A DNA stretch of 64,000 nt from Eubacteriales bacterium (GCA_045541535.1 JAZQJG010000066.1:4136-68135); one strand, 5' to 3'; numbered from the stretch's first letter, positions 14,277 to 63,708 are shown. Numbers and translations are program-made. The notes: generated by a model from the sequence alone, not told the origin.

Positions 14277-14522
14277 GGGGGGCTTTACAGTCATTTTAAT
14301 ACATAAAAAAAGGGTGGTCAACGGGGCGGGAGGGGGAGATTTTGTTAATTTTGAATTTTTTTGCATATAGATATCCCGACGGCAGGGTTTACAAGCAAAA
14401 TAAAATGTGATACACTAAAAGATAATATAAATCAGGAAAAATCCAGCCCCCGGCGGCCGGAGAAAAGCGGGCGATTTTCCTGTGATATGCCGTCCCGACG
14501 GCAGGAGAAGAGAGGTAGACCG

Positions 14523-15629
14523 ATGGTAATTTTAGACGAGATCAAAATGAATCTGAGCGCCAAGGAGCCGGAGCTGAAAAACCTGAAAAAGGCCCTTGGA
14601 ATTGAGGAAAATCAAGGACGTTTGGCAGAGCTGGAAAAGCAGAGCGAGGCCCCCGATTTTTGGGACGATCTGGAAAACAGTCAGAAGGTATTGCGGGAGA
14701 TCAAGGGCATCAAAAACACCGCCGAGGAATATGCGGCATTGGAGAGCGCCTTTGAGGATATCGGCGCGATGATCGAGCTGGCCGAGGAGGAAGGCGAGGA
14801 GGATCTGGCAAGTGAGATTGCCGCCGAATACGCCGCCTTTGAGCAAAAGCTGGAGGCCGCCAGCCTGCAGGCCTTGCTGTCGGGGGAATATGACAAGAAC
14901 AACGCCATCCTCACCTTCCACGCCGGCGCCGGCGGCACCGAGGCCCAGGATTGGGCGGAGATGCTGTACCGTATGTACACCCGTTACGCCCAGCGCCACG
15001 ATTTCAAGATCACCGTGCTGGACTATCTGGACGGAGAAGAAGCGGGTATTAAGAGCGCTACCATTATGGTAGAGGGAATGTATGCCTACGGCTATCTTAA
15101 GTGCGAGATGGGCGTGCACCGTCTGGTGCGCTGTTCTCCCTTTGACTCCAGTGGCAGACGGCACACCTCCTTTGCTTCTCTGGAGGTTACCCCCGAGCTG
15201 GAAAACGACACCACCATTGAGATCGCCGACGACGACATCCGTGTGGACACCTATCGGGCCAGCGGCGCCGGCGGTCAGCACGTTAACAAAACCAGCTCCG
15301 CCATCCGGATCACCCATCTGCCCACCGGTATCGTGGTCACCTGCCAGAACGAGCGCAGTCAGCACAAAAACCGTGATATGGCCATGAAAATGCTGAAGAG
15401 TAAACTGTTGCAGATCAAGGAACGGGAGCATCTGGAAAAAATTGAGGATATCAAGGGCGATATGATGCAGATCGGCTGGGGCAGTCAGATCCGCAGTTAC
15501 GTATTTATGCCCTATACTCTGGCCAAGGATCACCGCACCGGCCACGAAAACGGCAACATCAACGCCGTTATGGACGGCGATATCGACGGCTTTATCACTG
15601 CCTCCCTGTTGGGCAAAACCGAGGAATAA
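14523..15629 (+). CDS. prfB: peptide chain release factor 2 (single ORF, no programmed frameshift)
   Basis: SPF tripeptide (RCSPFDS), GGQ ([11 protein letters not shown]) and PDFWDD near the N-terminus. The start is the ATG at 14523 after a GAGAGG RBS. Confidence 0.93.
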   Translation: MVILDEIKMNLSAKEPELKNLKKALGIEENQGRLAELEKQSEAPDFWDDLENSQKVLREIKGIKNTAEEYAALESAFEDIGAMIELAEEEGEEDLASEIAAEYAAFEQKLEAASLQALLSGEYDKNNAILTFHAGAGGTEAQDWAEMLYRMYTRYAQRHDFKITVLDYLDGEEAGIKSATIMVEGMYAYGYLKCEMGVHRLVRCSPFDSSGRRHTSFASLEVTPELENDTTIEIADDDIRVDTYRASGAGGQHVNKTSSAIRITHLPTGIVVTCQNERSQHKNRDMAMKMLKSKLLQIKEREHLEKIEDIKGDMMQIGWGSQIRSYVFMPYTLAKDHRTGHENGNINAVMDGDIDGFITASLLGKTEE

Positions 15630-15656
15630 ATCACAAAAATCAAGGACGTTAAAGTT

Positions 15657-16940
15657 ATGACGCTGATTGAATTTTTTGACGAAAACCGCATTGAAAACGT
15701 GGCCTGCGCTCTGATCTGTAAGGCGGAGCGGGTATATCTGCTGGGGGGCTCCCCTGCGGGACTGGCTGAGTATTGCAGACGGTATGGGGAGCTGACGGGT
15801 AAGGAATTTATTGCCCGCAGTATCAACCGCAGTAAGCTGACCGAAACGGTAAAAGAATTGGAAAAGCTGATCCACGAGATCCTTGCCGAGGATGAGGAAT
15901 GCGTGCTGGAGCTGGCCGGCGGAGACGATCTCTGTCTGGTGGCCGCCGGTATGGTGGCGGATCGGTTTGAGAGCGGGGTGCGTTTGTGTCGCACCAACGT
16001 TCCCCACAGCCGTATCGACACCTTTTATCCCGAGAGCAAGAGCTGCAGTGCACCCCTGCGACTGAGCATTGCGGAGAACGTGCGCATATACGGTGGCGGA
16101 TTGCATCTGACGGAGAACTGGGATCTGGAGGCTATCCGTCCCACCGCCGAGCTGTTGTGGAGTCTGGGAGAAGAATTTTCCGACTGGAACAGCCGTTGCG
16201 AGCTGATGGGGCGGATCCGCGCCAATTTCCCCGTGGATGCCAATAACAATCCTTTGACCGTGGAAGGGGACAAGACGGGCTATCTGCGCTTCGGCGGGCG
16301 GTTTTCCGATATTTGCAATCCCAATCATCTGGCCCGGCTGACCCGTGCCCAGTTGCAACAAGTGATCGAACTGTTGCAGGCCATCTGGCGGCGGCAGGGG
16401 GAGGAAAATCAGGTATTGCGTTCCCTGTTGGTGGATGAGCAGGCGGGGCTGTTGTATGCGGAATTTGCAAGTGAGAGCGCCAAGCGCTTGCTGGACAAAG
16501 CGGGTCAGGTGCTGGAGGTCTGGCTGGCCTGTCAGCTCAAAGAACTGAAGGAGCCCAAGGCCAAGGTGGGCGGTCCCTTTTTCCAGGATATCTGCGTGGG
16601 CGCAGAGCTGGATTGGGACGGTGTGGCCGAGCCGGACAATTTGCCCGACGTCAATAACGAGATCGACGTTATGGCCATGCGGGGAATGATCCCCATCTTT
16701 ATTTCCTGCAAAAACGGCAAGGTCAAAACAGAGGAGTTGTACAAACTCTCCCACGTGGCCGAGCGCTTTGGCGGGGAATATGCCAAAAAGCTGTTGGTGG
16801 CCCGCTCTCTGGGAGCGGAGGACAACGCCGAGATCAGCTTTGAAAAGCGGGCCAAGGAGATGGGCATCCATCTTATAGAGTTGGACGAACTGGAAAATAC
16901 ACAGCAACTGCTGTGGGAAATACAAAAACATTGTATGTAG
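15657..16940 (+). CDS. Card1-like (DUF1887) protein: CARF-like N-domain + PD-(D/E)xK nuclease-like C-domain
   Basis: The N-terminus ENVACALICKAERVYLLGG ... LELAGGDDLCLVAAG is Rossmann/CARF-like. The C-terminus NEIDVMAMRGMIPIFISCKNGK fits the DUF1887 restriction-endonuclease-like signature. Confidence 0.65.
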   Translation: MTLIEFFDENRIENVACALICKAERVYLLGGSPAGLAEYCRRYGELTGKEFIARSINRSKLTETVKELEKLIHEILAEDEECVLELAGGDDLCLVAAGMVADRFESGVRLCRTNVPHSRIDTFYPESKSCSAPLRLSIAENVRIYGGGLHLTENWDLEAIRPTAELLWSLGEEFSDWNSRCELMGRIRANFPVDANNNPLTVEGDKTGYLRFGGRFSDICNPNHLARLTRAQLQQVIELLQAIWRRQGEENQVLRSLLVDEQAGLLYAEFASESAKRLLDKAGQVLEVWLACQLKELKEPKAKVGGPFFQDICVGAELDWDGVAEPDNLPDVNNEIDVMAMRGMIPIFISCKNGKVKTEELYKLSHVAERFGGEYAKKLLVARSLGAEDNAEISFEKRAKEMGIHLIELDELENTQQLLWEIQKHCM

Positions 16941-16952
16941 AGGAGAAAAAAT

Positions 16953-17420
16953 ATGGGACTCAACAAAAGTGATCTGATCTTTGCCGCACTGCAGGCGGCG
17001 CTCAACAAAATTGATTGGAAGTACCGTGTACGGGAAAACAGCAGAATGATCGTCAGCGGTATGAGAGGGGACGATCTGCCCATTGACGTAAAGATCGACG
17101 TCAGAGAGGATATGGAGACCATTCTTTACGTTTCCGTCCTGCCCTTTGAGGTACCGGCTGAAAAGCGTATGGAGATGTGTACGGCCCTCAACGTCACCAA
17201 CTACGTATTAAGGGACGGTTGCTTTTCCATGGATATGGCCGACGGCAACGTGTTGTTTAAGCTGACCACCTGCTATCACGATTGTAACGTGGGAATGGGT
17301 CTGTACGTCCATTATCTGGAGCGTATGTGCGCCACGGTGGATCATTTTGACCGCAAATTGTACGAGCTGTCCACCGGTGAGATCACCTTGAAGGATTATA
17401 TTGCTTTTGTGATGGAATAA
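16953..17420 (+). CDS. YbjN-like (T3SS-chaperone-like) domain protein
   Basis: 155 aa. The pattern ..ILYVSVLPFEVPAEKRMEMCTALNVTNYVLRDGCFSMDMADGNVLFKLT is typical of the YbjN family as I recall it. Confidence 0.55.
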   Translation: MGLNKSDLIFAALQAALNKIDWKYRVRENSRMIVSGMRGDDLPIDVKIDVREDMETILYVSVLPFEVPAEKRMEMCTALNVTNYVLRDGCFSMDMADGNVLFKLTTCYHDCNVGMGLYVHYLERMCATVDHFDRKLYELSTGEITLKDYIAFVME

Positions 17421-17424
17421 AAAC

Positions 17425-18327
17425 GTGACCGGAGAAGAAATCTATCAAACAATAGAGGCGGCCTTGGTACAGAGAAACTGTACCGTTCGGCGGCAACAGG
17501 TATACGGTGTGCAATGGCTGGAAGCCGTGCGAAGGTCGGGGGATAGCGTAAGGGTGCAGTACTTGCAGTGGGAGAACGTATCGGAACTGGAGTTTACCGT
17601 TGCGTTGGCCACCCCGATCAAAAAGGAAAATACGGTTACGACCTGTGTGTTGGCCTCCCGCCCCCTCTACCCGTTCACCGTGGAAGGGAATCGGGTTTTG
17701 TACCGTCGGCGGTTTGCGTTGTCGGAGCCGGTGGACACCGAATATCTTATCCGCGCTCTGGAACGGATGTGGGCGGTTACGGATCGGTACGTTTGGTATT
17801 TTGCGGCGGTGGACGTTACGGCACAGCCAAAGCAGGTGTTGCCGGAGGATTTGCCGCCCATCAGCCATTCGTCAGACCGTCTGCAGGAGGCGGATTCCGA
17901 GAACTTTGTGGGCCTTGGGGAGGCATTTGAACAGGCAGGCTGTTACGTGGAAGCGCGGGACGGCCGCTTTGCCGCCACCCCGGAGGGCGGCTTTCCGTAT
18001 ATGGTATATCGGGAGCCGGAGTCGGCACAGTTGCGCATCTGCTATCGATTGGGGCGGATCCCACGGCACAAGCGGGCGGCGGCCTGCGTCCTTCGTTGCG
18101 CCCTGCAACGGGAGATGGAGGGCCTTTATCTGCAATTTGACGTGGATGATGGGACGTTGGAGCTTTGTTATGAGTTACCCTACTACGCCGCCCCGGAAAA
18201 TGATTTCATCGCCTTGGTTTTGAAAAGACTCTTTCGGCAACGTCGGAGGACAACGCGCTTTTTTAACCGATTAAACGACGGTTGTCCCCTGGGGGAGCTG
18301 TTGGAGGAACTGGGAGGTTTGGGATGA
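17425..18327 (+). CDS. hypothetical protein, apparently two YbjN-like modules
   Basis: GTG start 4 nt after the upstream stop. The second half, RICYRLGRIP..CALQREMEGLYLQFDVDDGTLELCYEL, repeats the YbjN-like pattern. Confidence 0.5.
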   Translation: MTGEEIYQTIEAALVQRNCTVRRQQVYGVQWLEAVRRSGDSVRVQYLQWENVSELEFTVALATPIKKENTVTTCVLASRPLYPFTVEGNRVLYRRRFALSEPVDTEYLIRALERMWAVTDRYVWYFAAVDVTAQPKQVLPEDLPPISHSSDRLQEADSENFVGLGEAFEQAGCYVEARDGRFAATPEGGFPYMVYREPESAQLRICYRLGRIPRHKRAAACVLRCALQREMEGLYLQFDVDDGTLELCYELPYYAAPENDFIALVLKRLFRQRRRTTRFFNRLNDGCPLGELLEELGGLG

Positions 18328-19220
18328 GCGCCAACGAACAACTGCTGGAATGTTTTGGAAAAGTATTGGCAGAACAAGGAATTTATTGCAGATTGGAGCA
18401 TTCTGCGTTGGTGGGGAGCGAGCCCTATCCCGTGTTGGTGCGGGCGGAGGGGTATTCGCTGAACGTTCGCATCGGCTACGGCCCCGCCAACGGACGGCAG
18501 CATTACGTGAAAACGGCGGTGCAATTGGCACGGGCCGGCGCATTTTGCGACACCGGCGGCACCTTTTGCCAAACAGAGGCGGCAGCGCCGGAATATCGCC
18601 GTACCTTTGTTTTTATCTACGATCCTACGCCGGACGTGCTGGAGGCTTGGGCGGAACAGCTTTTGCGCATTATGCATGGGTTTCGCGGCTTTATTTATGA
18701 GGGCAAGCCCATTGCATATCTGCCCGATCAACCCTTACGTTATAACGACAATCCCGAATTTTTGGGGCGGCTGGCACGGCGTAATATGCAACGGATGAAG
18801 CGATTTTTGATACAAGAGGACTTGCCCGCCACCGAACGGGACAATATGCTGGGCTGTGCCCTGCCGGAGGGAAGCGTTTTTACGATACAGCCAAACGTCA
18901 ACGGACAGTTTTTGCTGGTGAGCAGTCAACGGATTGACGTTCCCGATCATAAACTGGCATTGGCGGCGGCCTTTCAGGCCTTGCTCAATACCCGTATCGA
19001 GCCCTTTTACGTGGACACCCATCTGGAGGAGGGCTGGTTGCGGCTCTGCCTGACGCTGGATTATGCCGGTGGCACCCCCATCGCCTCGGAGAAGATGACC
19101 CTGTTGCGGGAATTTTCGGAAACGACGGAGCGGTTGAAGGAACTGTACAACACGCTGTTTCGGGAGGAAACGGACGTGCGTGCCCTGTGGCAAAGCATAT
19201 ATAACAGTGGACTGAAATAA
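18324..19220 (+). CDS. hypothetical protein, apparently two YbjN-like modules
   Basis: The ATG at 18324 overlaps the upstream TGA (ATGA coupling). The C-terminal half, ..ALLNTRIEPFYVDTHLEEGWLRLCLTLDY, is YbjN-like. Confidence 0.5.
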   Translation: MSANEQLLECFGKVLAEQGIYCRLEHSALVGSEPYPVLVRAEGYSLNVRIGYGPANGRQHYVKTAVQLARAGAFCDTGGTFCQTEAAAPEYRRTFVFIYDPTPDVLEAWAEQLLRIMHGFRGFIYEGKPIAYLPDQPLRYNDNPEFLGRLARRNMQRMKRFLIQEDLPATERDNMLGCALPEGSVFTIQPNVNGQFLLVSSQRIDVPDHKLALAAAFQALLNTRIEPFYVDTHLEEGWLRLCLTLDYAGGTPIASEKMTLLREFSETTERLKELYNTLFREETDVRALWQSIYNSGLK

Positions 19221-19230
19221 AGGAGAGGCT

Positions 19231-19764
19231 ATGTATACACCCCAACCCACCAAAACCGACCATATCACCCTGCCCGAAACGCTGTTACCCCTGCGGGAAA
19301 AGCTGGCGGAAAACGTCCATCGGGTATGGATGGAGACCCGCCTGTCCCAGGGCTGGCGCTATGGCCCCCGTCGGGACGACGAGCAACTGACCCATCCGGG
19401 GCTGGTGCCCTACGGGGAGTTGTCCGAATCGGAAAAGCGGTTTGATCGGGCCACCGCGCTGGGGACTCTTCGGCTGATTTTGGCGCTGGGCTATCGGATA
19501 ATTGCCGATGAGCAGACCGAGGGATTTCCGCCTGAGCTCTACCAACTGCAGGAGCAGATTGCCGAGGATATCCACGACATCTGGTCCAAGGGACGGCTGG
19601 AGCAGGGCTGGCGTTACGGCCCGGCGCGCAATGATGAAACGAAGGAGCACCCCTGTCTGGTGCCCTACGAGGAGCTCAGCGAGGAGGAAAAGGAATACGA
19701 CCGCCGTACCGCCTTTGAGACCTTATCCCTGATCCTTGCATTAGGTTATAAAATTTATAAATAA
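19231..19764 (+). CDS. tandem RyR (ryanodine-receptor repeat) domain protein
   Basis: Two internal repeats: AENVHRVWMETRLSQGWRYGPRRDDEQLTHPGLVPYGELSESEKRFDR..ILALGYRI and AEDIHDIWSKGRLEQGWRYGPARNDETKEHPCLVPYEELSEEEKEYDR..ILALGYKI. Confidence 0.75.
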   Translation: MYTPQPTKTDHITLPETLLPLREKLAENVHRVWMETRLSQGWRYGPRRDDEQLTHPGLVPYGELSESEKRFDRATALGTLRLILALGYRIIADEQTEGFPPELYQLQEQIAEDIHDIWSKGRLEQGWRYGPARNDETKEHPCLVPYEELSEEEKEYDRRTAFETLSLILALGYKIYK

Positions 19765-19772
19765 CGAGTAAG

Positions 19773-19805
19773 ACCGCCGTGGGAACGCCACGGCGGTTTT
19801 TTATT
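19773..19805 (+). terminator. intrinsic terminator after the RyR gene
   Basis: Perfect 10-bp stem accgccgtgg/ccacggcggt followed by T6. Confidence 0.8.
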
Positions 19806-19807
19806 TG

Positions 19808-19836
19808 TTGACAGTATATCAATAAAATTATATAAT
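19808..19836 (+). promoter_or_regulatory. consensus sigma-A promoter TTGACA-17-TATAAT
   Basis: Both hexamers are perfect with a 17-nt spacer, 40 nt upstream of the 19877 ATG. Confidence 0.7.
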
Positions 19837-19876
19837 TGTTCTATATATTGACAAATTCTGCAAAGGAAGTGCTTGT

Positions 19877-22800
19877 ATGAATAAAAGTAAAGCTTTAAGG
19901 GCAATGATGCTGACCGCTCTGCGCCGCACGGCGGCCTCCGGTATTTATAAAATTACGCCGGAGCAATTTTTACTTTGTGTGGCGGAGATCGATACGCTGA
20001 ACGCCGATTCGGAAGTGATGCGGGCGGTGGATCTGCTACGTCACAGGGCGGAGAATTTTGAGCGTTTTCAACAGGCACTGCAATATTTTCTTCGTTTAAA
20101 GCAGGGAGAGCCTGCGGAATTTGACGAGGCGCTGGAGCGTGCCGAAGAGAGAAGTCAGGCGGCGGAAAAAACGGAACTGACGCTGGATGCGCTGGTGGAG
20201 GAAATCCTGGAGGAGCCCGGCCGTAACGTGGGCTTTGCTCTGCTGTGTGAAGAAGCGGAGCTGGAATTGTTGCGGGCAGAACTGGAAGAGGAGGCGCAAG
20301 GGGCGTCTTCCGGCCGGGAGCGCACGGATGAGGAACTGTTGCAACTGCTGGAACGGTTACATCAGGTGGAACAGGAGGAAATGGCGGAGCTGATGGGAGC
20401 TCTCAATCCGGCGGATCTGGAACGGTTGGGCGAACTGCTTACCGAGCAGCATCCGGAGGTTTTGGAGGAGGATCCGGACCGTACCTATACCGATGAGGAA
20501 CTGTGGGCGCTGTGGGAGCAAATGGACGAAGCGGACGGCGACGAGGTAGACCGTGTTTTGGAGAGTTTGCCCCCCGCGGATCTGAAGCGTCTGGTGGAAC
20601 TGATTGAGGAAAAGCGAGAGGATCTGCTCACCGAACTGGCGGTGGATTTGGCAAATATGGAAGAAAAGGCGAAGGCGGAGGATTCCGCATCCGAGCTTTC
20701 GGTGGAGGAAAAGGCGAAACGTGCCATTCTCACCCTGGACCGTATGATGAAACAGGGGGATCACGTGGGGGCCTTCACAATGATCCAGAACACCGAGCCG
20801 CCCGTGGCTATGGAGATCATTTCTTTGATGCAACAGGCCGGTATGTTGGAGGAGGATGCCGCCGAGCAGTTGCGATATGCGCTGGGCGGCGAGGAAGCCC
20901 TGCAACAGAAACCCGAAGATATGGAAGAAAACAAAGGAGCCGAGGAGCCCCGTGCAACGGGCAAACTCTCGGACTTTTTGGCAGAGCTTTTGGGCACCGC
21001 CATGGCAGAGGCTGAAGAAGTGCTTGGGGAGGAGACCGAACAGGTGATCACCGAGAAAGAGGAGGCGGCAGACGTTGACGCCATCACCCGACTGGTGACC
21101 CGTGTCAACGACATTCGCACCAAGCTCCTTGGCAAGGTATTTGGTCAGGAGCACGCCGTGGACGTGTGTGTGACCGGTTTGTTTAATGCGGAGTTTGCCG
21201 CCCTCACCGGTCACGAGACCAACAAGCCCCGGGCCACCTTCCTCTTTGCCGGACCTCCCGGCGTGGGTAAGACCTATCTGGCTGAATCTATGGCTGAGCT
21301 GATGGGACTGCCCTATCTGCGGGTGGATATGAGCGAGTTTGGTAATTATCACGGCTCCGAGCGCTTTAGAAACGTTCTTCAATTCGTGAAGGAAAAGCCC
21401 AAAAGCGTTATTTTGTTTGACGAGATCGAGAAGGCCAACGGCGAGGTTATCAATCTGTTTTTGCAGATTCTGGACGCCGGCAGAGGCGGCGAGGCGCCCC
21501 GTGCGGTCAGCTTTGCCGAGACCTATCTCTTTTTTACCACCAACGTGGGTCGGGGGCTGTACGAGGGCACCGATCAGACCGATCTCTCCGGCAACAGCCG
21601 CAAGGTGATCCTGCGGGCCTTGGAGCAGGAGATCAATCCCCAGACCCGTCAGCCTATGTTCCCGGCGGCCATCTGTTCCCGCTTTGCCACCGGTAACGTG
21701 GTGATGTTCAATCACCTGCCCGCCCACCAGCTTTGTCGCATTGCCAAGGACGTGATCCTGCGGCGGGCAGAGGGTGTGGCCAACAAGATGAATCTGCAGG
21801 CGGAATTCGACCCTGCCGTTTTTTCCACCGTTCTTTTTGCCCAGGGCGGTCGGGCCGACGGCCGTACGGTAACCGCCTGTGCCAACGCCTTCTTTGAGGG
21901 TGAGCTGTACGAGCTGTTCCGTATGGTCCACAGCAAGGCGGAGGACAAGAAGATCGGCAACATCCGTCGGGTGCGCTTTACCCTGGAAATGCCCGAGGAT
22001 GAAGAACTCCGCAAGCTGTACGTGGCAGAGGAAAAAATGAAGGTGCTGATGTTTGCCGATTCCCTGACCGGCGCCCTGCAACGCCCTGCCTGTAACCAAT
22101 GTGAAATTCTGACCGTGGATAATATTCCCCAGATGGAGCTGCTGTTGGCCACCGAGCCCATCCGTCTGGTGCTGTGCGATATTTCCTACGGTTTTAAAAC
22201 CAGTGATTATCTCAACACCGAGGATTGCAGCTCCCGTGGACGGGATTGCTTTAAAAGACTGCGGGAGCGGCATCCCGCTTTGCCCGTTTATCTGCTCCAC
22301 GACGGTTTGAGTGACGAGGAAAAGGTTTCCTTTACCCGTGAAGGGGCCAGAGGATTTTTTGAGAAAACTGCCATCCATCATCCGGAGACCATGACGGCCT
22401 TGGACGAGATCGCCCTGCAGCTTCATCAGCAGGAGAGTATGTACGCCCTGGCCAGTACCAATCGTATGGTGGATTATGAAACGGCCCAGCGGATCTCCGA
22501 GGACGGCGAGAGCTGTGAGATCCGTATCTTTGATCTGTGCACTCGGGTCAACGTGGACGCCGAGGATCGCGACAGCGTGCTCTCCGCCTTGGAAAAACCG
22601 GACGTAAACTTCGCCGACGTGATCGGCGCCAAGGATGCCAAGGAAGAACTGCAGTTCTTTGTCAATTACCTGCGGGATCCCAAGGCCTTCCGCAAAAGCG
22701 GGACCAAGGCGCCCAAAGGCGTTCTGCTCTACGGCCCTCCCGGCACCGGTAAGACTATGCTGGCCAAGGCCATGGCCAACGAATCCGGCGTCACCTTTAT

Positions 22801-23920
22801 TGCCAGTGAGGGCAACGCCTTTTTGAAAAAATGGGTGGGCGAGGGCCCGCAAAAGGTGCACGAGCTGTTTGCCACCGCCCGTAAATATGCGCCCGCCATT
22901 ATTTTCGTGGACGAGATTGACGTGATCGGCAAGGAGCGCTCGGGAGACGACGGCACCGGCTACAAGCCTGACGATATTCTCACCGCGTTTCTGGCCGAGA
23001 TGGACGGCTTTGCCGCCAACCCCGACAAGCCGGTCTTTGTACTGGCCGCCACCAATTACAGCGTGGAGGCGGGCAATGCCAAGAGTCTGGACGGAGCGCT
23101 GTTGCGGCGCTTCGACCGGCGGATCCTGGTGGATCTGCCGGATAAGGAGGAACGGTTGCGCTATCTTAAACTGCGCACCGAAAAGGATACCTTCTTTAAG
23201 GTCAGCCAGGCGCAACTGGAGAGTCTGGCCGCCCGTTCGGCGGGGATGAGCCCCGCTTTGCTGGAGGGTGTGCTGGAAATGGCCAAGAGAGAAGCTCTCA
23301 AGGACGGCGCTTCCGCAGTGGACGACAATATGCTGGACCGTGCCTTTGAGACCTACAACAGCGGAGAGGAAAAGGTGTGGAATCCCGATCAGCTGGAGCG
23401 GGTGGCCTATCACGAGGCAGGACACGCCTTGCTGAGCTGGCTGGCGGGGGACAAGCCCACCTACATCACCATCGTGGCCCGTGGCAATCACGGCGGCTAT
23501 ATGCAACACGGTGATAACGAGGGCAAGGCCATCTTCACCAAGGATGAATTGTTGGCGCGCATTCGCACCTCTTTGGGTGGACGGGCCGCCGAACTGCTAC
23601 ATTACGGCGACAAAGACGGCGTAACCACCGGCGCCTCCGGTGATCTGGCCTCGGCCACCGAGCTTGCTACCCATCTGGTTTGCTCCTACGGTATGGACGC
23701 CGACTTCGGTCTGGCGGTGATTTCCCCCGAAGCGGCCTATAAGGGCGGCTTGGCGGAAGAAATCCGCGCCACCGTTAACGTCTTGCTTCAGGAACAGTTG
23801 ACCCGGGCCATCGGGCTGTTGCAGGAGCATCAGAACAAACTGGAGGCTATGGTGGAGCGCTTGTTGGACTGCAACCACCTGACTGCCGAAAAAATCGAGC
23901 AGATCTTTGCTGAAAATTAA
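19877..23920 (+). CDS. soluble dual-AAA+ metalloprotease chimera (acidic N-region, Clp-D2-like AAA+, receiver-like domain, FtsH-type AAA+ and M41 peptidase)
   Basis: Walker A FAGPPGVGKT and Walker B VILFDEIEKA, preceded by GQEHAV (Clp D2 style). Second Walker [11 protein letters not shown] and Walker B IIFVDEIDV. Zn motif HEAGH and GASGDL are present. There is no hydrophobic TM segment, unlike the canonical ftsH at 40733. Confidence 0.8.
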   Translation: MNKSKALRAMMLTALRRTAASGIYKITPEQFLLCVAEIDTLNADSEVMRAVDLLRHRAENFERFQQALQYFLRLKQGEPAEFDEALERAEERSQAAEKTELTLDALVEEILEEPGRNVGFALLCEEAELELLRAELEEEAQGASSGRERTDEELLQLLERLHQVEQEEMAELMGALNPADLERLGELLTEQHPEVLEEDPDRTYTDEELWALWEQMDEADGDEVDRVLESLPPADLKRLVELIEEKREDLLTELAVDLANMEEKAKAEDSASELSVEEKAKRAILTLDRMMKQGDHVGAFTMIQNTEPPVAMEIISLMQQAGMLEEDAAEQLRYALGGEEALQQKPEDMEENKGAEEPRATGKLSDFLAELLGTAMAEAEEVLGEETEQVITEKEEAADVDAITRLVTRVNDIRTKLLGKVFGQEHAVDVCVTGLFNAEFAALTGHETNKPRATFLFAGPPGVGKTYLAESMAELMGLPYLRVDMSEFGNYHGSERFRNVLQFVKEKPKSVILFDEIEKANGEVINLFLQILDAGRGGEAPRAVSFAETYLFFTTNVGRGLYEGTDQTDLSGNSRKVILRALEQEINPQTRQPMFPAAICSRFATGNVVMFNHLPAHQLCRIAKDVILRRAEGVANKMNLQAEFDPAVFSTVLFAQGGRADGRTVTACANAFFEGELYELFRMVHSKAEDKKIGNIRRVRFTLEMPEDEELRKLYVAEEKMKVLMFADSLTGALQRPACNQCEILTVDNIPQMELLLATEPIRLVLCDISYGFKTSDYLNTEDCSSRGRDCFKRLRERHPALPVYLLHDGLSDEEKVSFTREGARGFFEKTAIHHPETMTALDEIALQLHQQESMYALASTNRMVDYETAQRISEDGESCEIRIFDLCTRVNVDAEDRDSVLSALEKPDVNFADVIGAKDAKEELQFFVNYLRDPKAFRKSGTKAPKGVLLYGPPGTGKTMLAKAMANESGVTFIASEGNAFLKKWVGEGPQKVHELFATARKYAPAIIFVDEIDVIGKERSGDDGTGYKPDDILTAFLAEMDGFAANPDKPVFVLAATNYSVEAGNAKSLDGALLRRFDRRILVDLPDKEERLRYLKLRTEKDTFFKVSQAQLESLAARSAGMSPALLEGVLEMAKREALKDGASAVDDNMLDRAFETYNSGEEKVWNPDQLERVAYHEAGHALLSWLAGDKPTYITIVARGNHGGYMQHGDNEGKAIFTKDELLARIRTSLGGRAAELLHYGDKDGVTTGASGDLASATELATHLVCSYGMDADFGLAVISPEAAYKGGLAEEIRATVNVLLQEQLTRAIGLLQEHQNKLEAMVERLLDCNHLTAEKIEQIFAEN

Positions 23921-23927
23921 CCCTGTT

Positions 23928-23950
23928 CCCGACGGGCCTCGCCCGTCGGG
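23928..23950 (+). other. GC-rich stem-loop between the protease and membrane-protein genes (no U-tract)
   Basis: Perfect 10-bp stem cccgacgggc-ctc-gcccgtcggg followed by GGAAAGGA (the RBS of the next gene). Confidence 0.5.
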
Positions 23951-23964
23951 GGAAAGGATATGAT

Positions 23965-26499
23965 ATGCAACAGTTTTTAGAAGCCTTTTTGGCACTTCTC
24001 GGCAAGAAAACCTATCCGGCAGAGCCAAAGGTGATGCTGATCACCACGGCCCTGTCCCTGCTGGTGTTGGCGCTGGCCATCGGCATTGCGCTCAAACGAC
24101 GCAAGCCCACCGGCGGCAAGCCTTTTCCCTTTTCCCGTGGCATCGTATCGGTGGCTCTCATTGCCTTTTCGGTGTTTATCTACGTATTTCCCTTGCAGAT
24201 GTACGTGTATCTGGGAGATTATCAAGGGGAATGGGATCTGGGAGCGGCTATTGCGCTGGCCCTTTACGAAACGGTCCGTGTCTTTCTGGTGGGCGCCGAT
24301 TTTAACTTTGTGAAGGATGCCGTCAGCACCAGCTCCGATATTTTGCAGAGCTTTTGCGTGATTTACGGCGGCCTGCTGTATGCCTTGGCTCCGATGATGA
24401 CCATCGGCTTTGTGCTCTCTATGTTCAAGGATTTCTGGGCGCAGGTGCGCTTTATGATGCCCCGGTATTTCCGTACCACCTATTACGTTTTTTCCGAACT
24501 CAACGAGCGCTCTCTGGCCCTGGCCACCAGCATCTGCCGGCAATACCATTCTCCCTGGGACAGATGGTTTAGGGGGGCAAAGACTGCCTCTTTAAATGCG
24601 GCACAGCCCGTGGAGCAACCCACGCCTTACGAAGCGCAGGGCGAACTGCTGAAGAGCGTGCAGGCACAACTGGCACAGGTGGAAAAGAGGCTGCGGGAGG
24701 CGACGGGGGATGAAAAGCGGGATTCGCTTACGGTCCAACGGCAACAATTGCTGGAATTGGAGCAGACGCATCGGCATATTTTGGAAAACGCTCCGCAAGA
24801 GGTGCGGGTAAAATACCTGAAGGAAGAAGACCGGGGTGCCGCCCGAAAGTCCTCGGTCAACCGGCGGAAGCCCTATTTCGGTAAGCCCATCATCGTGTTT
24901 ACCGACGTATACGTGCAAAACGAGGAGCGACCCTACGAGCTGACCGCCAGAGCCAGAGAATTGGGCGCTATCTGCCTGAAAAAGGATATTACCACCCTGA
25001 ACGTACATAAACGGTGGAACGGTGTGGAGTTTTACGTCATAGGCGAGAACGAATCGGAAAATCTGCATCACGCCTTGCATCTGGTGGAGCAATGCGCCCA
25101 GCGTCCGGTAAAGGTGCGCCGCAGAGTGTATATCTTCGCTCGCACCGAAACGGCGGCCCATATCATTGATTCGGCCCAAGGACAGGAGTTGACGGAACTG
25201 CGGGAGCAGTTAAAAGAATCCTTTGCAAAAAATGAAGAAAAATTTGCCGCCAACACAGAGGATCCCGGCCTGATCAAGGCCAATATTCAAAAAATGCTGC
25301 AGGCCCATCAACGGATGAGCGACGAGCGGCTTATGATCCGCAGGGTGGACGACGTGCAACTGTTGGTACTGCGCACTTTGAGGCAGGCAAAGCTCTTTGA
25401 ATCCGCCAAAAGCACCGGCAAGATCTGTATCACCGTGGCCGGTATGGGCGAATACGGCAGAGCCTTTGTTAAAACCGCCCTGTGGTTTTGCCAGACCGAG
25501 GATTATTTTCTGGAGCTCAACGTGATTGATGAAAACGGTGATGCCCAGCAACGGCTGTGGCACGAATGCCCCGAGCTGATGGCCCGTAACGGCGTCGTTG
25601 AGGCAGGGGAGGCCCGTTACAGTATGCGGTTTTTCAGCGGTGTCAACTGCTTTGACAAAACGCTGGACGAATTGCTGGAGGGCAAGAAGGGCTTTACCGC
25701 AGAGGATGCCGCCCGTCTGGGCCGCACCACCCATCTGTTTATCGCCTTGGGCGACGATGATCGCAATATTGAGGCGGCAATGATGTTCCGCAATCGCTTT
25801 GATCGCCTGCGGGGCTTTCGGGCCAATAAGAAGATCAAACCGGAAGAGGAAACTCTTGCCATCTATGCCGTGGTCTACGACGATCAAAAGGCGCACAATC
25901 TGGATATTTCCGAGAATGACAAGCAGACGCTGATCAACCACGAGAGCATCCCTTATAATATCAATTTCATCGGCAGTATGAGTGAGCAATATCGGTACGA
26001 CTTTTTCCACGACGACGAGGAGGAGCATCGGGCCTTTGCCTATCATATGGATTGGGCGGCCTCGGAATTTGCCATCCGTCTGGCAGAAGCCCGCAGGCAG
26101 GGCGCCGTGGCGGTGGATCTTACCTATTTGGATCAGTTGTCCGACCCCGAAGAAGCCTATCAAGATATTATGAAATACGAGCAGTACGAGTATTATCGGG
26201 AGTCCTCCCTGGCCAAGATGCACCATCGAGAAGCCAGTCTGGATGCCATGCCCAAACGACTGCTTTGTCACTACGTCTTACCCACGGAAACGCCGGAAAG
26301 ACGGCGACAGGTGAAACCCTACGTTGGCTGTCAGTGTGAGAACTGTCAGCGCCGCCGTCGCAGTGAGCATATGCGCTGGAACGCCTATATGCGCGCCCAG
26401 GGCTACGTTTTCGGTCCCCGCAAGGCCACCCGCGGCAAGGTCCACGCAGATCTCAAGCCCTTTGCCGGGCTACCCCTTCACGAGCAGCTTAAGGATTAA
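23965..26499 (+). CDS. membrane protein with Rossmann-like (TrkA-N-like) central region and C-terminal RyR-like domain
   Basis: About 4 N-terminal hydrophobic segments, a coiled-coil-like stretch and a glycine loop ICITVAGMGEYG. The C-terminus SEHMRWNAYMRAQGYVFGPRKATRGKVHADLKPFAGLPLHEQ resembles the RyR repeat of the 19231 gene. Confidence 0.65.
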   Translation: MQQFLEAFLALLGKKTYPAEPKVMLITTALSLLVLALAIGIALKRRKPTGGKPFPFSRGIVSVALIAFSVFIYVFPLQMYVYLGDYQGEWDLGAAIALALYETVRVFLVGADFNFVKDAVSTSSDILQSFCVIYGGLLYALAPMMTIGFVLSMFKDFWAQVRFMMPRYFRTTYYVFSELNERSLALATSICRQYHSPWDRWFRGAKTASLNAAQPVEQPTPYEAQGELLKSVQAQLAQVEKRLREATGDEKRDSLTVQRQQLLELEQTHRHILENAPQEVRVKYLKEEDRGAARKSSVNRRKPYFGKPIIVFTDVYVQNEERPYELTARARELGAICLKKDITTLNVHKRWNGVEFYVIGENESENLHHALHLVEQCAQRPVKVRRRVYIFARTETAAHIIDSAQGQELTELREQLKESFAKNEEKFAANTEDPGLIKANIQKMLQAHQRMSDERLMIRRVDDVQLLVLRTLRQAKLFESAKSTGKICITVAGMGEYGRAFVKTALWFCQTEDYFLELNVIDENGDAQQRLWHECPELMARNGVVEAGEARYSMRFFSGVNCFDKTLDELLEGKKGFTAEDAARLGRTTHLFIALGDDDRNIEAAMMFRNRFDRLRGFRANKKIKPEEETLAIYAVVYDDQKAHNLDISENDKQTLINHESIPYNINFIGSMSEQYRYDFFHDDEEEHRAFAYHMDWAASEFAIRLAEARRQGAVAVDLTYLDQLSDPEEAYQDIMKYEQYEYYRESSLAKMHHREASLDAMPKRLLCHYVLPTETPERRRQVKPYVGCQCENCQRRRRSEHMRWNAYMRAQGYVFGPRKATRGKVHADLKPFAGLPLHEQLKD

Positions 26500-26511: not shown

Positions 26512-26540
26512 TTGACAAAAATTCGGGCCCTCATTATAAT
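26512..26540 (+). promoter_or_regulatory. consensus sigma-A promoter TTGACA-17-TATAAT
   Basis: Perfect hexamers with a 17-nt spacer, directly upstream of the riboswitch. Confidence 0.7.
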
Positions 26541-26549
26541 ATTAATAGT

Positions 26550-26716
26550 GATTCCCAATGAGGGAGTAGCAACCGTCCGTCGGACGGAGTTCGGTCAACA
26601 ATCGGCATTTTGCCTGGCCGACTTTAAACTGCGAGACTCATGTATGATCCTTTCGACGTACATCGGTCGGCTAAAACATCCAAACCCGTGTACACTAAAG
26701 GTGTACGCGGGTTTTT
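26550..26716 (+). promoter_or_regulatory. yybP-ykoY (Mn2+) riboswitch with terminator expression platform
   Basis: AAUGAGGGAGUAGC (26557-26570), GGUCAACAAUCGGCAU and UUUAAACUGCGAGACUCAU match the conserved cores. P1 is aatgag/ctcat. The terminator aaacccgtgtacac-taaag-gtgtacgcgggttt plus T5 lies at 26682-26716. Confidence 0.7.
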
Positions 26717-26741
26717 CAATTTACACAAGGGAGAACAAGGT

Positions 26742-29366
26742 ATGAAGTTTTACAACAACACCCCGGAAGAGATCTTTACGTCTCTGGAATGTAGTGAAAA
26801 CGGTCTTTCCGCCGCCGAGGCCGCTGCCCGGTTGGAGAAAAACGGCCCCAACAAATTGGCCGCCGCCAAGGGAAAGAGTATTTTCCGCCGTTTTCTGGAG
26901 CAGTTGATGGATCCGATGATCATCATTCTGCTCTTTGCCGCCGCCATCAGCGGCGTGATGGCTGTGGTGGAAAACGAGAGCTTTGCCGACGTGATCATCA
27001 TTCTGGCCGTCGTTTTGATCAACGCCGTGTTGGGCGTGTATCAGGAGAGCAAGGCGGAAAAGGCCATTGAAGCCCTGCAGGAAATGAGCGCCGCCACCAG
27101 TAAGGTCATCCGGGACGGCGTGCTCAAGGTCGTTCCCAGCGAAAGTCTGGTAGTGGGCGATATCATTGCTCTGGAGGCCGGCGACGCCGTGCCTGCCGAT
27201 GCCCGCCTGCTGGAAAGCGCTTCGCTGAAGGTGGAGGAGGCCGCCCTGACCGGTGAGTCCGTCCCCGTCGACAAGGTGATCAAGCTGTTGGGTCTGGAGG
27301 GGGAGGACGTCCCTCTGGGCGACCGTAAAAATATGGTTTATATGGGCGGCACCGTGGTGTACGGCCGTGGCAAAGCGGTGGTCACCGCCACCGGTATGGA
27401 TACCGAGATGGGTAAGATTGCCGACGCTCTTACTGCCGCCGAGGAGGGGGATACCCCTCTGCAGAGAAAGCTCCATCAGCTTTCTAAAATTCTGACCTGG
27501 CTGGTACTGGGCATCTGTCTGGTGGTGTTCGGCGTGCAGTTATTGCGTGCCGGCGGCTTTGAATTTGAGGTGGTACTGCACTCCTTTATGGTGGCGGGTT
27601 CTCTGGCCGTTGCCGCCCTTCCCCAGGGTCTGGCCGCCGTGGTTACGGTGGTGCTGTCCATCGGTGTTACCAATATGTCCAAGCGCAACGCCATTATCCG
27701 TAAACTGACGGCGGTGGAAACGCTGGGCTGTGCCCAGATCATCTGCTCCGACAAGACCGGCACCCTCACCCAGAACAAGATGACGGTGGTGGACGCCTTC
27801 GGCTGTGATGAAAAGCTGACCGCCGCCGCTATGGCCCTTTGCTCCGATGCGGAATTGGATCAGGAGGGCGAGGTCACCGGTGAGCCCACCGAGGCCGCTC
27901 TGGTGGTTTGGGCCGACAAGTTAGGGCTCAACAAAAACGCTCTGAAAACTGCCGCTCCCCGTGTGGGCGAGGCTCCCTTTGATTCCGGCAGAAAGATGAT
28001 GTCCACCGTTCATCAGCAGGACGGTAAATTGGTGCAATACACCAAGGGCGGTATGGACGTACTGCTGGCAAAATGCACCTATTATCTCAAGGACGGGCAA
28101 CCCGTACCCATCAACGAGGAATATAAAAACGAGGTGATCTCCGCCGCCGGCGCCATGGCAAACAAGGCCTTGCGCGTGCTGGCCTGCGCCACCCGTACCC
28201 ACGATACCATGCCCGAATGTACACCGGAAAATCTGGAGCAGGAGCTCTGCTTTATCGGTTTGACGGGTATGATCGATCCTGTTCGTCCCGAGGTCAAGGA
28301 CGCCATTACCGAGTGCCGTAACGCCGGCATCCGCGCTATTATGATCACCGGCGACCATATTGACACCGCTCGTGCCATTGCCGCAGAGCTGGGCATCCTC
28401 ACCGAGGGTGTATGCGCTGTCAGCGGCAGTGAGCTGGACAAAATGGACGATGAAACCTTTGAGAAAGAATTTCAGTCCATCGGCGTGTACGCCCGCGTAC
28501 AGCCCGAGCACAAGACCCGTATCGTCACCGCCTGGAAAAAGGCGGGATATATCACCGCTATGACCGGTGACGGCGTTAACGACGCCCCCTCCATCAAGAG
28601 CGCCGACATCGGCGTGGGTATGGGCATCACCGGTACCGACGTTACCAAAAACGTGGCGGATATGGTTCTCACCGACGATAACTTCGCCACCATCGTGGGC
28701 GCCGTAGAGGAAGGCCGCCGAATTTACGACAATATCCGTAAGGCCATTCAGTTCCTGCTGGGCTCCAATATGAGTGAGGTCATTTCTATCTTCGTGGCCA
28801 CCCTCATCGGCTTTACCATTCTGGAGCCGGTGCATCTGTTGTGGATCAATCTGGTCACCGACACCTTCCCCGCCCTGGCTCTGGGTATGGAAAAGGCGGA
28901 GCGGGACGTAATGAAGCGTAAGCCCCGTGATTCCAAGGCCGGCATCTTCGCCGACGGTATGGGTGTGGACGTAGTCTATCAGGGTCTGATGGTTTCCGTG
29001 CTCACTCTGGCCTCTTACTTCATCGGCTGTTATCTGGAGACCGGTGTCTGGGCCTTCGTTCAGGAGCCCCACGGCATTACCATGGCTTTCCTTACCATGT
29101 CCATGGCCGAGGTATTCCATTCCTTCAATATGCGTTCCCAGCGTGGTAGCATCTTTACGATGAAATCCCACAACAAGGTGCTGTGGCTGGCCATGCTTGG
29201 CTCCTTTATCGCCACCACCGCCGTATGTGAGATTCCCTTGCTGGCCGGCGCCTTCGGTCTGACCGCCGTCAACCTCACCGAATACGCCATTGCCATCGTA
29301 CTGGGTATGGCCGTTATTCCCGTGGTGGAACTGGTCAAATTTATTCAGAGAAAATTGGCAAAATAA
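26742..29366 (+). CDS. P-type (PII, Ca2+/Mn2+-type) cation-transporting ATPase
   Basis: DKTGTLT, TGDGVNDAPS and TGES motifs, with N-terminal GLSAAEAAARLEKNGPNKL. The start is the ATG at 26742 after a GGGAGAA RBS; the listed ORF extension overlaps the riboswitch terminator. Confidence 0.9.
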   Translation: MKFYNNTPEEIFTSLECSENGLSAAEAAARLEKNGPNKLAAAKGKSIFRRFLEQLMDPMIIILLFAAAISGVMAVVENESFADVIIILAVVLINAVLGVYQESKAEKAIEALQEMSAATSKVIRDGVLKVVPSESLVVGDIIALEAGDAVPADARLLESASLKVEEAALTGESVPVDKVIKLLGLEGEDVPLGDRKNMVYMGGTVVYGRGKAVVTATGMDTEMGKIADALTAAEEGDTPLQRKLHQLSKILTWLVLGICLVVFGVQLLRAGGFEFEVVLHSFMVAGSLAVAALPQGLAAVVTVVLSIGVTNMSKRNAIIRKLTAVETLGCAQIICSDKTGTLTQNKMTVVDAFGCDEKLTAAAMALCSDAELDQEGEVTGEPTEAALVVWADKLGLNKNALKTAAPRVGEAPFDSGRKMMSTVHQQDGKLVQYTKGGMDVLLAKCTYYLKDGQPVPINEEYKNEVISAAGAMANKALRVLACATRTHDTMPECTPENLEQELCFIGLTGMIDPVRPEVKDAITECRNAGIRAIMITGDHIDTARAIAAELGILTEGVCAVSGSELDKMDDETFEKEFQSIGVYARVQPEHKTRIVTAWKKAGYITAMTGDGVNDAPSIKSADIGVGMGITGTDVTKNVADMVLTDDNFATIVGAVEEGRRIYDNIRKAIQFLLGSNMSEVISIFVATLIGFTILEPVHLLWINLVTDTFPALALGMEKAERDVMKRKPRDSKAGIFADGMGVDVVYQGLMVSVLTLASYFIGCYLETGVWAFVQEPHGITMAFLTMSMAEVFHSFNMRSQRGSIFTMKSHNKVLWLAMLGSFIATTAVCEIPLLAGAFGLTAVNLTEYAIAIVLGMAVIPVVELVKFIQRKLAK

Positions 29367-63660: not shown

Positions 63661-63708
63661 ATTAAAATATCCGCCCCTCGAGGCGCACTCCGTAAGGAAG
63701 TGCGCCTC

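Follow-up and report, generated by a model that had tools for sequence, protein, structure and literature searches.

Binding and cleavage of TIR-derived cyclic ADP-ribose (cADPR) by domains of the ryanodine receptor (RyR) Repeat12 type were shown only in 2026 and only for phage counter-defence proteins: two preprints report phage RyR-domain proteins that bind 2'/3'cADPR, the signals of Thoeris, with nanomolar affinity or cleave them (PMC13232231; doi 10.64898/2026.06.04.730250). The phage protein RyDEP contacts cADPR via His75, Trp78, His100 and Asp117 (PMC13232231), and the phage protein RyR Tad uses H129/W132, H154 and K170/D171 (doi 10.64898/2026.06.04.730250). A host RyR-domain effector is absent from both preprints and from a Thoeris survey, and membrane and ion-channel effectors were recently proposed for Thoeris types V and X (doi 10.64898/2025.12.03.692087). 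Iyer et al. 2022 predicted that single or duplicated type III secretion system (T3SS)/YbjN "TY-chaperones" are peptide-binding parts of ADP-ribose-centred conflict systems with restriction-fold effectors (PMC9503650). Here we analyzed a 64,000-nt stretch of DNA from a Eubacteriales bacterium (GCA_045541535.1, JAZQJG010000066.1:4136-68135; hereafter the window), in which seven genes, P1 to P7, bring together a Card1-like CARF protein, YbjN-type proteins, RyR-related proteins and an AAA+ protease. We hold, with slightly better than even confidence, that they represent a conflict cluster of a recurrent, modular and previously undescribed kind, most likely of the anti-phage or abortive-infection type. 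This reading is built on what was observed in the window and its relatives: the make-up of the genes, their domain homologies, the conservation of ligand residues and the modular co-localization.

The hub of the cluster is P7. It contains four transmembrane (TM)-like segments at about residues 19-154 and two Rossmann/RCK-like domains, marked by an invariant SELN motif (177-180) and a GxGxxG motif (GMGEYG, 493-498). In an AlphaFold2 (AF2) model (pLDDT 81.7), the N-terminus forms four TM helices, there are two domains of the Rossmann type, and the C-terminus is helical. P7 had no match in Pfam, NCBIfam or PADLOC, its four-helix N-terminal domain has no detectable homologue, and comparison of its fold with viral structures gave nothing. 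The best PDB matches found with Foldseek were the gating ring of CASTOR (6o7a; probability 0.96, E 0.06, TMt 0.36-0.42) and Slo1, with weak statistics. A K+ channel was ruled out by the absence of a TVGYG-type selectivity filter. The initial annotation had described P7 as a membrane protein ending in an RyR-like domain, and this description holds: the small-RyR and P7 families align in hhalign with a probability of 97.5% (E 5.5e-12), the P7 hidden Markov model (HMM) matches P5 at 2e-13, and PF02026 is precomputed on three P7 homologues. P7 ends at the pocket Asp and the last helix of the repeat is missing, so that no complete four-helix repeat could be assigned; judged by its sequence, P7 is a derived, truncated relative and no canonical member of the RyR-domain family.

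The second RyR protein, P5, was recognized by Pfam with two repeats (E 2.8e-60) and matches Repeat12 of RyR1-3 (1e-56) and the Bacteroides thetaiotaomicron protein 3nrt in the PDB, as expected from its annotation as a tandem RyR-domain protein. The ligand residues are kept in both repeats (H30/W33/H55/D72 and H115/W118/H140/D157). The P7 pocket, H802/W805/H827/K843-D844, shows the same spacing (+3, +22, +17) as H75/W78/H100/D117 of RyDEP, and its residues are invariant or nearly so in 54 family members. The ligand-residue pattern of RyR Tad is likewise matched by the P5 repeats and by the P7 C-terminus. At the position of RyDEP His100, both P5 repeats and P7 keep His. We also noted 94-aa single-repeat RyR proteins adjoining P7 homologues (locus L002:13511-13795 and 10 similar), which carry Thr at this position; Thr versus His may separate binding from catalytic subtypes.

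In order to place the cluster in a wider context, we searched 185,579 GTDB species representatives for P7, and the six-frame translations of 81 loci, the 80 best P7-related loci plus the window, were searched with component HMMs. The P7 family is rare, with 408 matches among the genome representatives and 62 protein clusters among 5.8 billion. The best 80 of the 408 matches all come from Clostridia metagenome-assembled genomes of gut and rumen, and the cluster type is confined to Oscillospiraceae, Acutalibacteraceae and related Clostridia. At least one partner was found in 62 of the 81 loci. A TIR gene is present in 27 (26 of them at most 5 kb from P7, 25 on the same strand), a separate RyR gene in 24 (all within 5 kb and on the same strand), a CARF nuclease in 19 (17 within 5 kb, 18 on the same strand), P6 in 19 (again 17 and 18) and YbjN in 15 (13 within 5 kb, all on the same strand). 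Zero matches were obtained with the same HMMs in 856 kb of unrelated control loci, the P6 bait excepted. The partners also occur with one another, namely CARF with RyR in 11 loci, CARF with P6 in 8, RyR with P6 in 9 and CARF with YbjN in 9, of 19-24. The co-localization is thus far above chance, extends over dozens of species and persists in shuffled order. It had further been argued that the RyR module closes both transcription units of the cluster and thereby links them; in agreement with this, RyR genes neighbour P7 in 24 of the 81 loci and the two pockets are homologous.

The nearest analogues of the window are L006 and L017, which read CARF-YbjN-YbjN-P6-P7-RyR, and L005. Elsewhere, P7 paralogue pairs bracket P6 (P7a-P6-P7b, 8-76-nt gaps; L001, L008, L009, L046) or stand in tandem (L002, L003, L020, L072). 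CARF abuts P7 in about a dozen loci, including L001-L003, L012, L020, L034 and L036, P6 lies downstream or inverted in L026, L040 and L032, and order and orientation also vary in L064. This shuffled gene order argues for selection on linkage, beyond shared descent alone. A neighbour-joining tree resolved three groups, namely "P7b", which includes the P7 of the window and is found mainly with P6, RyR and CARF, "P7a", and a mostly TIR-associated clade. Further recurrent neighbours of P7 are TraG/VirD4-like ATPases, ClpP, SpoVK-type AAA, PrsW and TerB-like proteins, transglutaminase-like giants and sigma/anti-sigma pairs (families F8/F12 and F11). Such variable neighbours are typical of the periphery of conflict systems. 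In about 12 loci, sets of two or three uncharacterized genes lie directly 5' of the P7 homologue, without a PADLOC match: a three-gene set of 567 aa, 738 aa and about 1900 aa (L055:3863-9562, L052:950-3166, L051:4-1707) and a two-gene set of 595 aa and about 1740 aa (L054:4482-9695, L073:15-1802). The giant proteins of these sets begin with TM helices and end in a transglutaminase-like domain.

Genes for TIR-leucine-rich repeat (LRR) proteins with a conserved catalytic Glu directly adjoin P7 homologues (<60 nt) in about 17 loci, and TIR genes also occur within clusters of the CARF/RyR/P6 type (L009, L032, L063). Among the clostridial TIR proteins, those at L055:13985-15994 (F27) and L037:11729-13375 (F5) have Toll-like-receptor-like layouts; the layouts are TIR-TM-LRR and a cytoplasmic TIR with BspA-type LRRs, the latter usually followed by a CitMHS-type permease gene.

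We also inspected the related loci for a connection to CRISPR. A k-mer scan of the 80 P7 loci detected arrays in L032 only, and a weak 3-copy signal in the control locus L155. The two mini-arrays of L032 (5323-5560 and 15457-15750) have the repeat CTTTCATTACCTCTATAAGGAATTGATAC in 4 and 5 copies, with a near-consensus promoter before each, and enclose the genes for a P6-like protein, a P7-like protein and a 632-aa TIR protein; this 22-kb locus is devoid of cas genes. Queries for Cas10, Cmr and RAMP proteins taken from L163 returned nothing in the 80 P7 loci. In the window, Pfam identified no cas gene among the ten largest flanking open reading frames (ORFs), prfB and the ATPase gene, and no scan with cas profiles was made. 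In L161 and L163, distant P6-like proteases (885-912 aa, AAA_2+AAA+M41) are directly followed by 276-323-aa YbjN proteins with Pfam-significant domains, one of them a clear tandem. The L163 pair lies about 4 kb downstream of Cas10/Cmr3/RAMP genes (type III-B), with several genes between, and upstream of Zorya-like genes; the L161 pair adjoins NACHT-like and ZorA genes. Both pairs are thus surrounded by defence genes, and they show that proteases of this type are regularly accompanied by YbjN proteins of double length, such as P3 and P4. A connection to type III CRISPR-Cas was seen in L163 and L032 only, and there indirectly.

P1 was matched by the Pfam family Card1_endonuc (PF09002) at 32.7 bits (cutoff 26.4) and by 17 PADLOC profiles of the CARF/Csx1 type, 13 of which are CARF4--CARF_PDDEXK variants (best 4.8e-20). 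The profile of the P1 family matches VC1899 (1xmx) and Can2 (7bdv) in both halves, the CARF half included; with this profile, residues 8-174 align to Can2 19-176 (domain E 0.0026; whole-sequence E 4e-6), and the CARF GG motif is conserved at G88-G89. P1 is therefore the DUF1887/Card1-like CARF protein that it had been taken for. The nuclease motif reads E335-I-D337 ... S350-C-K352, with Ser instead of the usual Glu; VC1899 and Can2 carry IECK where the P1 family has SCK. Enzymes of the Cfr10I type are known to carry an SxK variant in which the Glu is relocated, and by analogy P1 may still be active.

P6 combines three Pfam domains, AAA_2 (451-568), AAA (949-1086) and Peptidase_M41 (1171-1343). 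The ClpA/B-D2-like AAA_2 ring has its Walker A motif at 459-466 and its Walker B motif at 511-516, the FtsH-type AAA ring has Walker motifs at 953-960 and 1008-1013 and the pore loop WVG at 986, and the M41 motif HEAGH is located at 1179, so that the catalytic motifs are complete. The C-terminal 440 residues align over the whole FtsH AAA and M41 core, including the third zinc-ligand region, and no TM or hydrophobic segment was found in P6. An FtsH orthologue was rejected, as the membrane anchor is missing and NCBIfam TIGR01241 scores 370 against a cutoff of 600. The N-terminus is probably Clp_N-like, as we infer from a sequence motif and from Clp_N Pfam matches on homologues. The middle domain gave a sub-threshold match to receiver (REC) domains with an invariant D768 at the phospho-acceptor position, and we tentatively regard it as REC-like. 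Of the soluble chimera that the initial annotation had proposed, the Clp-D2, FtsH-AAA and M41 parts and the lack of a TM segment are thus borne out, and the receiver-like part remains below threshold. Sixteen P6 homologues, at 42-50% identity, adjoin P7 homologues. The region before the first AAA ring spans 404 aa in P6 versus 170-237 aa in these 16 homologues; it includes an acidic, internally repetitive linker, with about 200 extra residues (window 19877-21088). A metagenome scan with a P6-specific profile was swamped by ClpA/B-type AAA proteins and yielded full-length relatives in L081-L084 only; these have no P7, RyR or CARF nearby, which makes them weak as a reciprocal test.

The three proteins encoded between P1 and P5 had been described as being built from about five YbjN-like modules. 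P2 passed the Pfam YbjN cutoff (25.3 bits versus 22), and homologues were found, mostly as tandem pairs, in 14 of the 80 related loci, which makes 15 of 81 once the window is counted. P3 has only 2 homologues among 5.8 billion proteins and no sequence-profile match; an enlarged YbjN HMM gave a marginal score only, and in hhalign none of the four halves of P3 and P4 aligned significantly to the YbjN family (probability below 10%). Because the sequence tests were not significant, the YbjN call for P3 is based on fold prediction: a low-confidence AF2 model (pLDDT 58.6) shows two alpha-beta-beta-beta-alpha-beta-beta-alpha modules, and Foldseek consistently matched it to T3SS class-I chaperones and to YbjN/AmyR, namely ExsC, VecA, CesT, YbjN (6vu7) and AmyR (5fr7), with probability 1.0 and E 5e-4 to 1e-2. 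The C-terminal halves of P3 and P4 are paralogous (E 6e-7), and P4 would belong to the YbjN family indirectly, through this paralogy alone; its N-terminal half carries no assignment. The modular description thus stands for P2 (Pfam) and for P3 (fold match, low-confidence model) and finds no support in the N-terminal half of P4. An exhaustive HMMER search with P4 recovered itself and two fragmentary multi-stretch matches (E 1.3e-20 and 1.1e-4), neither full-length, and an index of contigs contained no exact-sequence match of P4 or P6. The near-orphan status of P3 and P4 is a hallmark of conflict genes. Taken together, matches in Pfam, PADLOC, the PDB, Foldseek and hhalign uphold the CARF, YbjN and RyR calls on which the initial annotation was built.

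The coordinates of the seven genes and their surroundings are listed in Table 1. All seven ORFs are complete and on the plus strand between prfB and a gene for a P-type cation ATPase, in line with the earlier description of co-directional, tightly packed genes: the gaps, operon-like in size, are 12 nt (P1-P2), 4 nt (P2-P3), a 4-nt overlap (P3/P4), 10 nt (P4-P5), 112 nt (P5-P6) and 44 nt (P6-P7). For P4, an ATG at position 18324, in overlap with the stop codon of P3, is the most likely start and was preferred over a TTG at 18282. The terminator and the perfect promoter that had been noted before the protease gene were both recovered. The prfB stop and the P1 start are 27 nt apart and the gap has no terminator, and P1-P5 are therefore probably read through from prfB. 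The prfB gene itself encodes its PCRF and RF-1 domains in a single continuous frame, and thus without a programmed +1 frameshift. Long antisense ORFs on the minus strand at 14532-16931 (799 aa, opposite prfB/P1) and 20357-23509 (1050 aa, opposite P6) were discarded as composition artefacts that fooled naive longest-ORF calling.

Table 1 Features of the seven-gene cluster and its immediate neighbours (positions in the window).
Feature	Position	Strand	Description	Basis
prfB	14361-15629		directly 5' of P1	
P1	15657-16940	+	427 aa, Can2/Card1-like CARF + PD-(D/E)xK nuclease	Pfam PF09002, PADLOC CARF4--CARF_PDDEXK
P2	16953-17420	+	155 aa, single YbjN/T3SS-chaperone-like (TY-chaperone) module	Pfam YbjN
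P3	17425-18327	+	300 aa, fast-evolving, two predicted modules	AF2 + Foldseek, TY-chaperone-like fold
P4	18324-19220	+	298 aa, near-orphan	C-terminal half paralogous to P3 C-terminal half
P5	19231-19764	+	177 aa, soluble tandem RyR (Repeat12-type) protein	Pfam RyR, PDB matches
Intrinsic terminator	19770-19800	+	13-bp stem, 8 GC pairs, T-run; ends prfB-P1-P5 transcription unit	
Sigma-70 promoter	19808-19836	+	TTGACA-17-TATAAT, 12/12 consensus match; serves P6-P7	
P6	19877-23920	+	1347 aa, soluble two-ring AAA+ metalloprotease	Pfam domains, motifs
P7	23965-26499	+	844 aa, hub protein	family alignment, AF2, Foldseek
P7 RyR-derived pocket	26338-26496	+	C-terminal, residues 792-844	H802-x2-W805-x21-H827-x15-K843-D844
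P-type cation ATPase	26640-29366		3' neighbour of P7	

The flanking genes are of housekeeping type (CysS, RecA, prfB, P-type ATPase, OAD-beta, GdpP, DnaB, TilS), and the seven genes therefore form a discrete insert; on this ground, we rejected the idea that they belong to an extended defence island of mixed content. GC content is unremarkable, and the 64-kb window contains no tRNA and no CRISPR array. The riboswitch that had been proposed to control the neighbouring ATPase gene found no support, since Rfam reported nothing at the gathering score and the trpB-motif reached only 32 bits (cutoff 59). Another perfect sigma-70 promoter is located at 26512-26540, followed by a hairpin with a T-run at 26682-26714 in the leader or 5' end of the ATPase gene; this region (26512-26722) looks like an attenuator-like leader rather than a recognised riboswitch. 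Farther away, an Rfam Gut-1 RNA scored 52 bits at 63708-63782 (gathering score 50), and the gene at 43035-49100, unrelated to the cluster, encodes a probable cell-surface protein of 2021 aa with SLH domains at its C-terminus.

The proposal of a signalling or defence cluster in the initial annotation is supported by these data. As the window contains no signal synthase, the mechanism, including the role in defence, the ligand, the direction of regulation and the membrane damage, is one that we infer. P7 would be a membrane effector in which the Rossmann/RCK-like ring and the RyR-type pocket bind an adenine-containing second messenger. The likely candidate is an ADP-ribose-derived signal such as TIR proteins produce, although a different adenine nucleotide may serve instead. 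Ligand binding would switch the four-helix membrane domain and lead to membrane perturbation. P5 might bind or hydrolyse the same ligand and thereby set a threshold or act as an off-switch; it may also dock onto, or complete, the truncated repeat of P7. P1 would provide a nucleic-acid-degrading arm triggered by a ligand of the cyclic oligoadenylate type. P6, together with the putatively peptide-binding P2-P4 as adaptors, baits or substrates, might control the level or the activation of the effectors, or the proteolysis arm could alternatively act on phage or host targets. Because the window lacks genes for TIR, Cas10 and CD-NTase proteins, the source of the signal would have to act in trans.

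Several observations weigh against a conflict cluster working as one system. The cluster is devoid of a nucleotide-signal synthase (TIR, Cas10, CD-NTase), a TIR HMM had no match anywhere in the 64-kb window, and the TIR link is one of homology, not of direct context, because the P7 of the window and most TIR-partnered P7s fall into different clades. The RyR repeat of P7 is truncated and aligns to repeat positions 20-72 of 92, the protein's own Pfam RyR match is insignificant (E 0.11), the Foldseek statistics behind a channel-like view are weak (E 0.06, TM 0.24-0.42), and a selectivity-filter motif is missing (no GYG). In P1, the search for the canonical D...ExK triad failed, the Ser that replaces the Glu being invariant in 15 family members, and nuclease activity is uncertain for this reason. 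The apparent co-transcription of P1-P5 with prfB would appear unusual for a tightly controlled toxic system. The modules also occur apart, P6 with YbjN in the absence of P7, and P7 with TIR in the absence of the rest, and the terminator and promoter divide the cluster between P5 and P6. This separability is what one would expect of a mini defence island, in which two or three non-cooperating systems share an insertion hotspot: an orphan type III ancillary CARF nuclease (P1), a YbjN and AAA+/M41 protease unit (P2-P4, P6) and an RyR and P7 unit (P5, P7). The P6-like and YbjN pairs of L161 and L163 stand without P7, CARF and RyR, the P7 and TIR pairs stand without the remaining modules, the split places the YbjN genes and P6 in different transcription units, and prfB also lies near P7 homologues in L006, L018 and L041, a recurrence that suggests a hotspot. 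However, at least 10 species share the combination of these specific families, with identities of about 30-50%, P6 sits between two P7 paralogues with 8-76-nt gaps (L001, L008, L009, L046), about a dozen loci have CARF immediately next to P7, and pairwise co-occurrence far exceeds the expectation for independent rare genes. We consider such an island a serious but rather improbable account.

RCK/KTN domains classically bind NAD(H) or ATP. A physiological module without an immune role, in which P7 is a transporter or channel regulated by adenine nucleotides (ATP/NAD(H)), the RyR/RCK-like domains are metabolic sensors, CARF is a nucleotide-responsive nuclease or regulator and P6 with YbjN serves stress proteolysis, would be compatible with this property, with the housekeeping flanks, the adjoining P-type cation ATPase gene, the lack of a GC anomaly and the apparent co-transcription of P1-P5 with prfB. 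The nucleotide binding of R12 and the stress link of YbjN point in the same direction: the RyR R12 domain is cited as binding ATP in doi 10.64898/2026.06.04.730250, and YbjN proteins have been linked to stress responses (PMC5398634). The distribution is patchy, though (408 matches versus 185,579 species representatives), the partners are hyper-variable (TIR-LRR, CARF-nuclease, sigma/anti-sigma, proteases, CRISPR arrays), P3 and P4 diverge to orphan level, and P7 has no K+ selectivity filter, all of which makes a purely physiological role unlikely in our view. It would be even more surprising, and we regard it as highly improbable, if the genes were counter-defence cargo of a mobile element or prophage, with the RyR proteins as sponges of host Thoeris signals, although the characterized prokaryotic RyR proteins have so far all been phage anti-Thoeris sponges or hydrolases (PMC13232231; doi 10.64898/2026.06.04.730250) and genes of the TraG/VirD4-like and ClpP types are recurrent in the vicinity of some related loci. 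P7 had no match in 72,556 plasmids, and INPHARED and IMG/VR together contain a single near-identical fragment, which carries bacterial housekeeping genes; this virtual absence from plasmid and phage collections disfavours a cargo. Neither an integrase nor a phage structural gene was found among the ten flanking ORFs scanned, prfB and the ATPase gene, and the window lacks a tRNA. The two phage- or viral-labelled entries with a P7 homologue, L166 (GenBank MT835673) and L168 (IMGVR_UViG_3300007796_000088), are 98% identical to each other and are probably bacterial fragments; by translation, the other ORFs of L166 appear to encode two-component, thymidine-kinase, HemN-like and topoisomerase proteins.

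In the window and its relatives in at least 80 species, the RyR pocket is found in the host, as part of a membrane/Rossmann protein whose gene is linked to those of TIR-LRR proteins, CARF nucleases and a unique soluble Clp-D2/FtsH chimeric protease. If the reading as a conflict cluster is correct, nucleotide-based immunity would gain a new class of effectors and sensors, a "RyR buffer" would be described for the first time from a host, and regulated AAA+ proteases would be extended by a new type that has partners from the YbjN family, whose function has been obscure for decades. The cluster would also offer a directly testable model, in bacteria, of how ligands control the R12 domain of the ryanodine receptor. 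It is abundant in gut and rumen Clostridia, in which defence systems have been under-sampled. A more far-reaching version, which we put forward only tentatively and think less likely to be right than wrong, is that TIR(-LRR) sensors of gut Clostridia make an ADP-ribose-derived messenger that opens or activates the P7 family, and that this family comprises the first cellular non-animal membrane effectors gated by a pocket of the RyR Repeat12 type. It would be a prokaryotic counterpart, and possibly an evolutionary source, of the animal axis, long a matter of debate, from TIR/CD38 via cADPR to the ryanodine receptor; the version in the window would add an RyR buffer or hydrolase, a CARF nuclease and an AAA+ protease with YbjN adaptors and so form a multi-input, self-limiting immune hub.

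How does the cluster compare with described systems? In PADLOC-DB v2, P2, P3, P4 and P7 had no match, and P1, P5 and P6 hit single-component, generic-ATPase or marginal candidate profiles only (CARF4, IetA/DolB/TRIP13, PDC-S05); for P1 these were single-gene CARF4 profiles and for P6 generic AAA profiles (IetA, DolB, TRIP13). No one system accounts for the set, and none of such composition was found in PADLOC or in the literature searched, which agrees with the earlier impression of an undescribed combination. Among individual systems, Thoeris resembles about 17 related loci, in which the P7 homologue directly adjoins a TIR(-LRR) gene of the same direction, just as thsB adjoins its effector gene. 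The TIR partners give weak matches to ThsB profiles, and P7 appears to combine a membrane domain with a pocket of the fold shown to bind 2'/3'cADPR in phage proteins. Unlike Thoeris, the cluster of the window has no TIR gene, the TIR partner of related loci carries LRRs, an RyR-type sensor is unreported in any Thoeris effector, and P7 matches no PADLOC model. With the phage RyR proteins, P5 shares the Pfam family PF02026 and the His/Trp/His/Asp set in both repeats, and P7 shares the same ligand residues at identical spacing. In contrast to them, the genes of the window are host-chromosomal, P5 is a covalent tandem like R12 and not a homodimer, and in P7 a truncated repeat is joined to a membrane/Rossmann protein, which makes for a previously undescribed architecture.

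P1 has the two-domain architecture of Can2/Card1, the cA4-activated nucleases of type III CRISPR-Cas, with homology in both domains and the CARF GG motif, but the Glu of its ExK motif is replaced by an invariant Ser and its gene lies among RyR, YbjN and AAA-protease genes. Regulated proteolysis that is genetically coupled to a nucleotide sensor recalls CalpL-CalpT-CalpS and IetAS; several related loci contain sigma/anti-sigma pairs, and P6 has generic AAA matches to IetA. P6 differs from the proteases of these systems in being an ATP-dependent FtsH-type metalloprotease with a Clp-D2 ring, not a SAVED/CARF-Lon protease or a subtilase, and in having no sensor domain of its own except for the possible REC-like insert. 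It shares with FtsH the AAA+ module, the M41 HEXXH peptidase, Walker A/B motifs and pore loop, whereas the TM anchor and the periplasmic domain are missing and an additional N-terminal AAA_2 ring is present. In the TY-chaperone systems of Iyer et al., as in the window, single or duplicated YbjN-fold proteins adjoin a restriction-fold effector in a variable, fast-evolving NAD/ADP-ribose-related neighbourhood; those systems, however, are centred on ADP-ribosylglycohydrolase, phosphatases and Nudix/WYL regulators, none of which is present in the cluster. For Panoptes (mCpol with CARF-TM), the cluster ORFs gave no polymerase-like Pfam match, no search having been aimed at mCpol itself. Overall, the cluster would work like Thoeris and the ancillary signalling of type III CRISPR, yet by gene content and profile matches it belongs to neither of them, and what it would add to nucleotide-second-messenger immunity is a new sensor-effector class and a new protease module.

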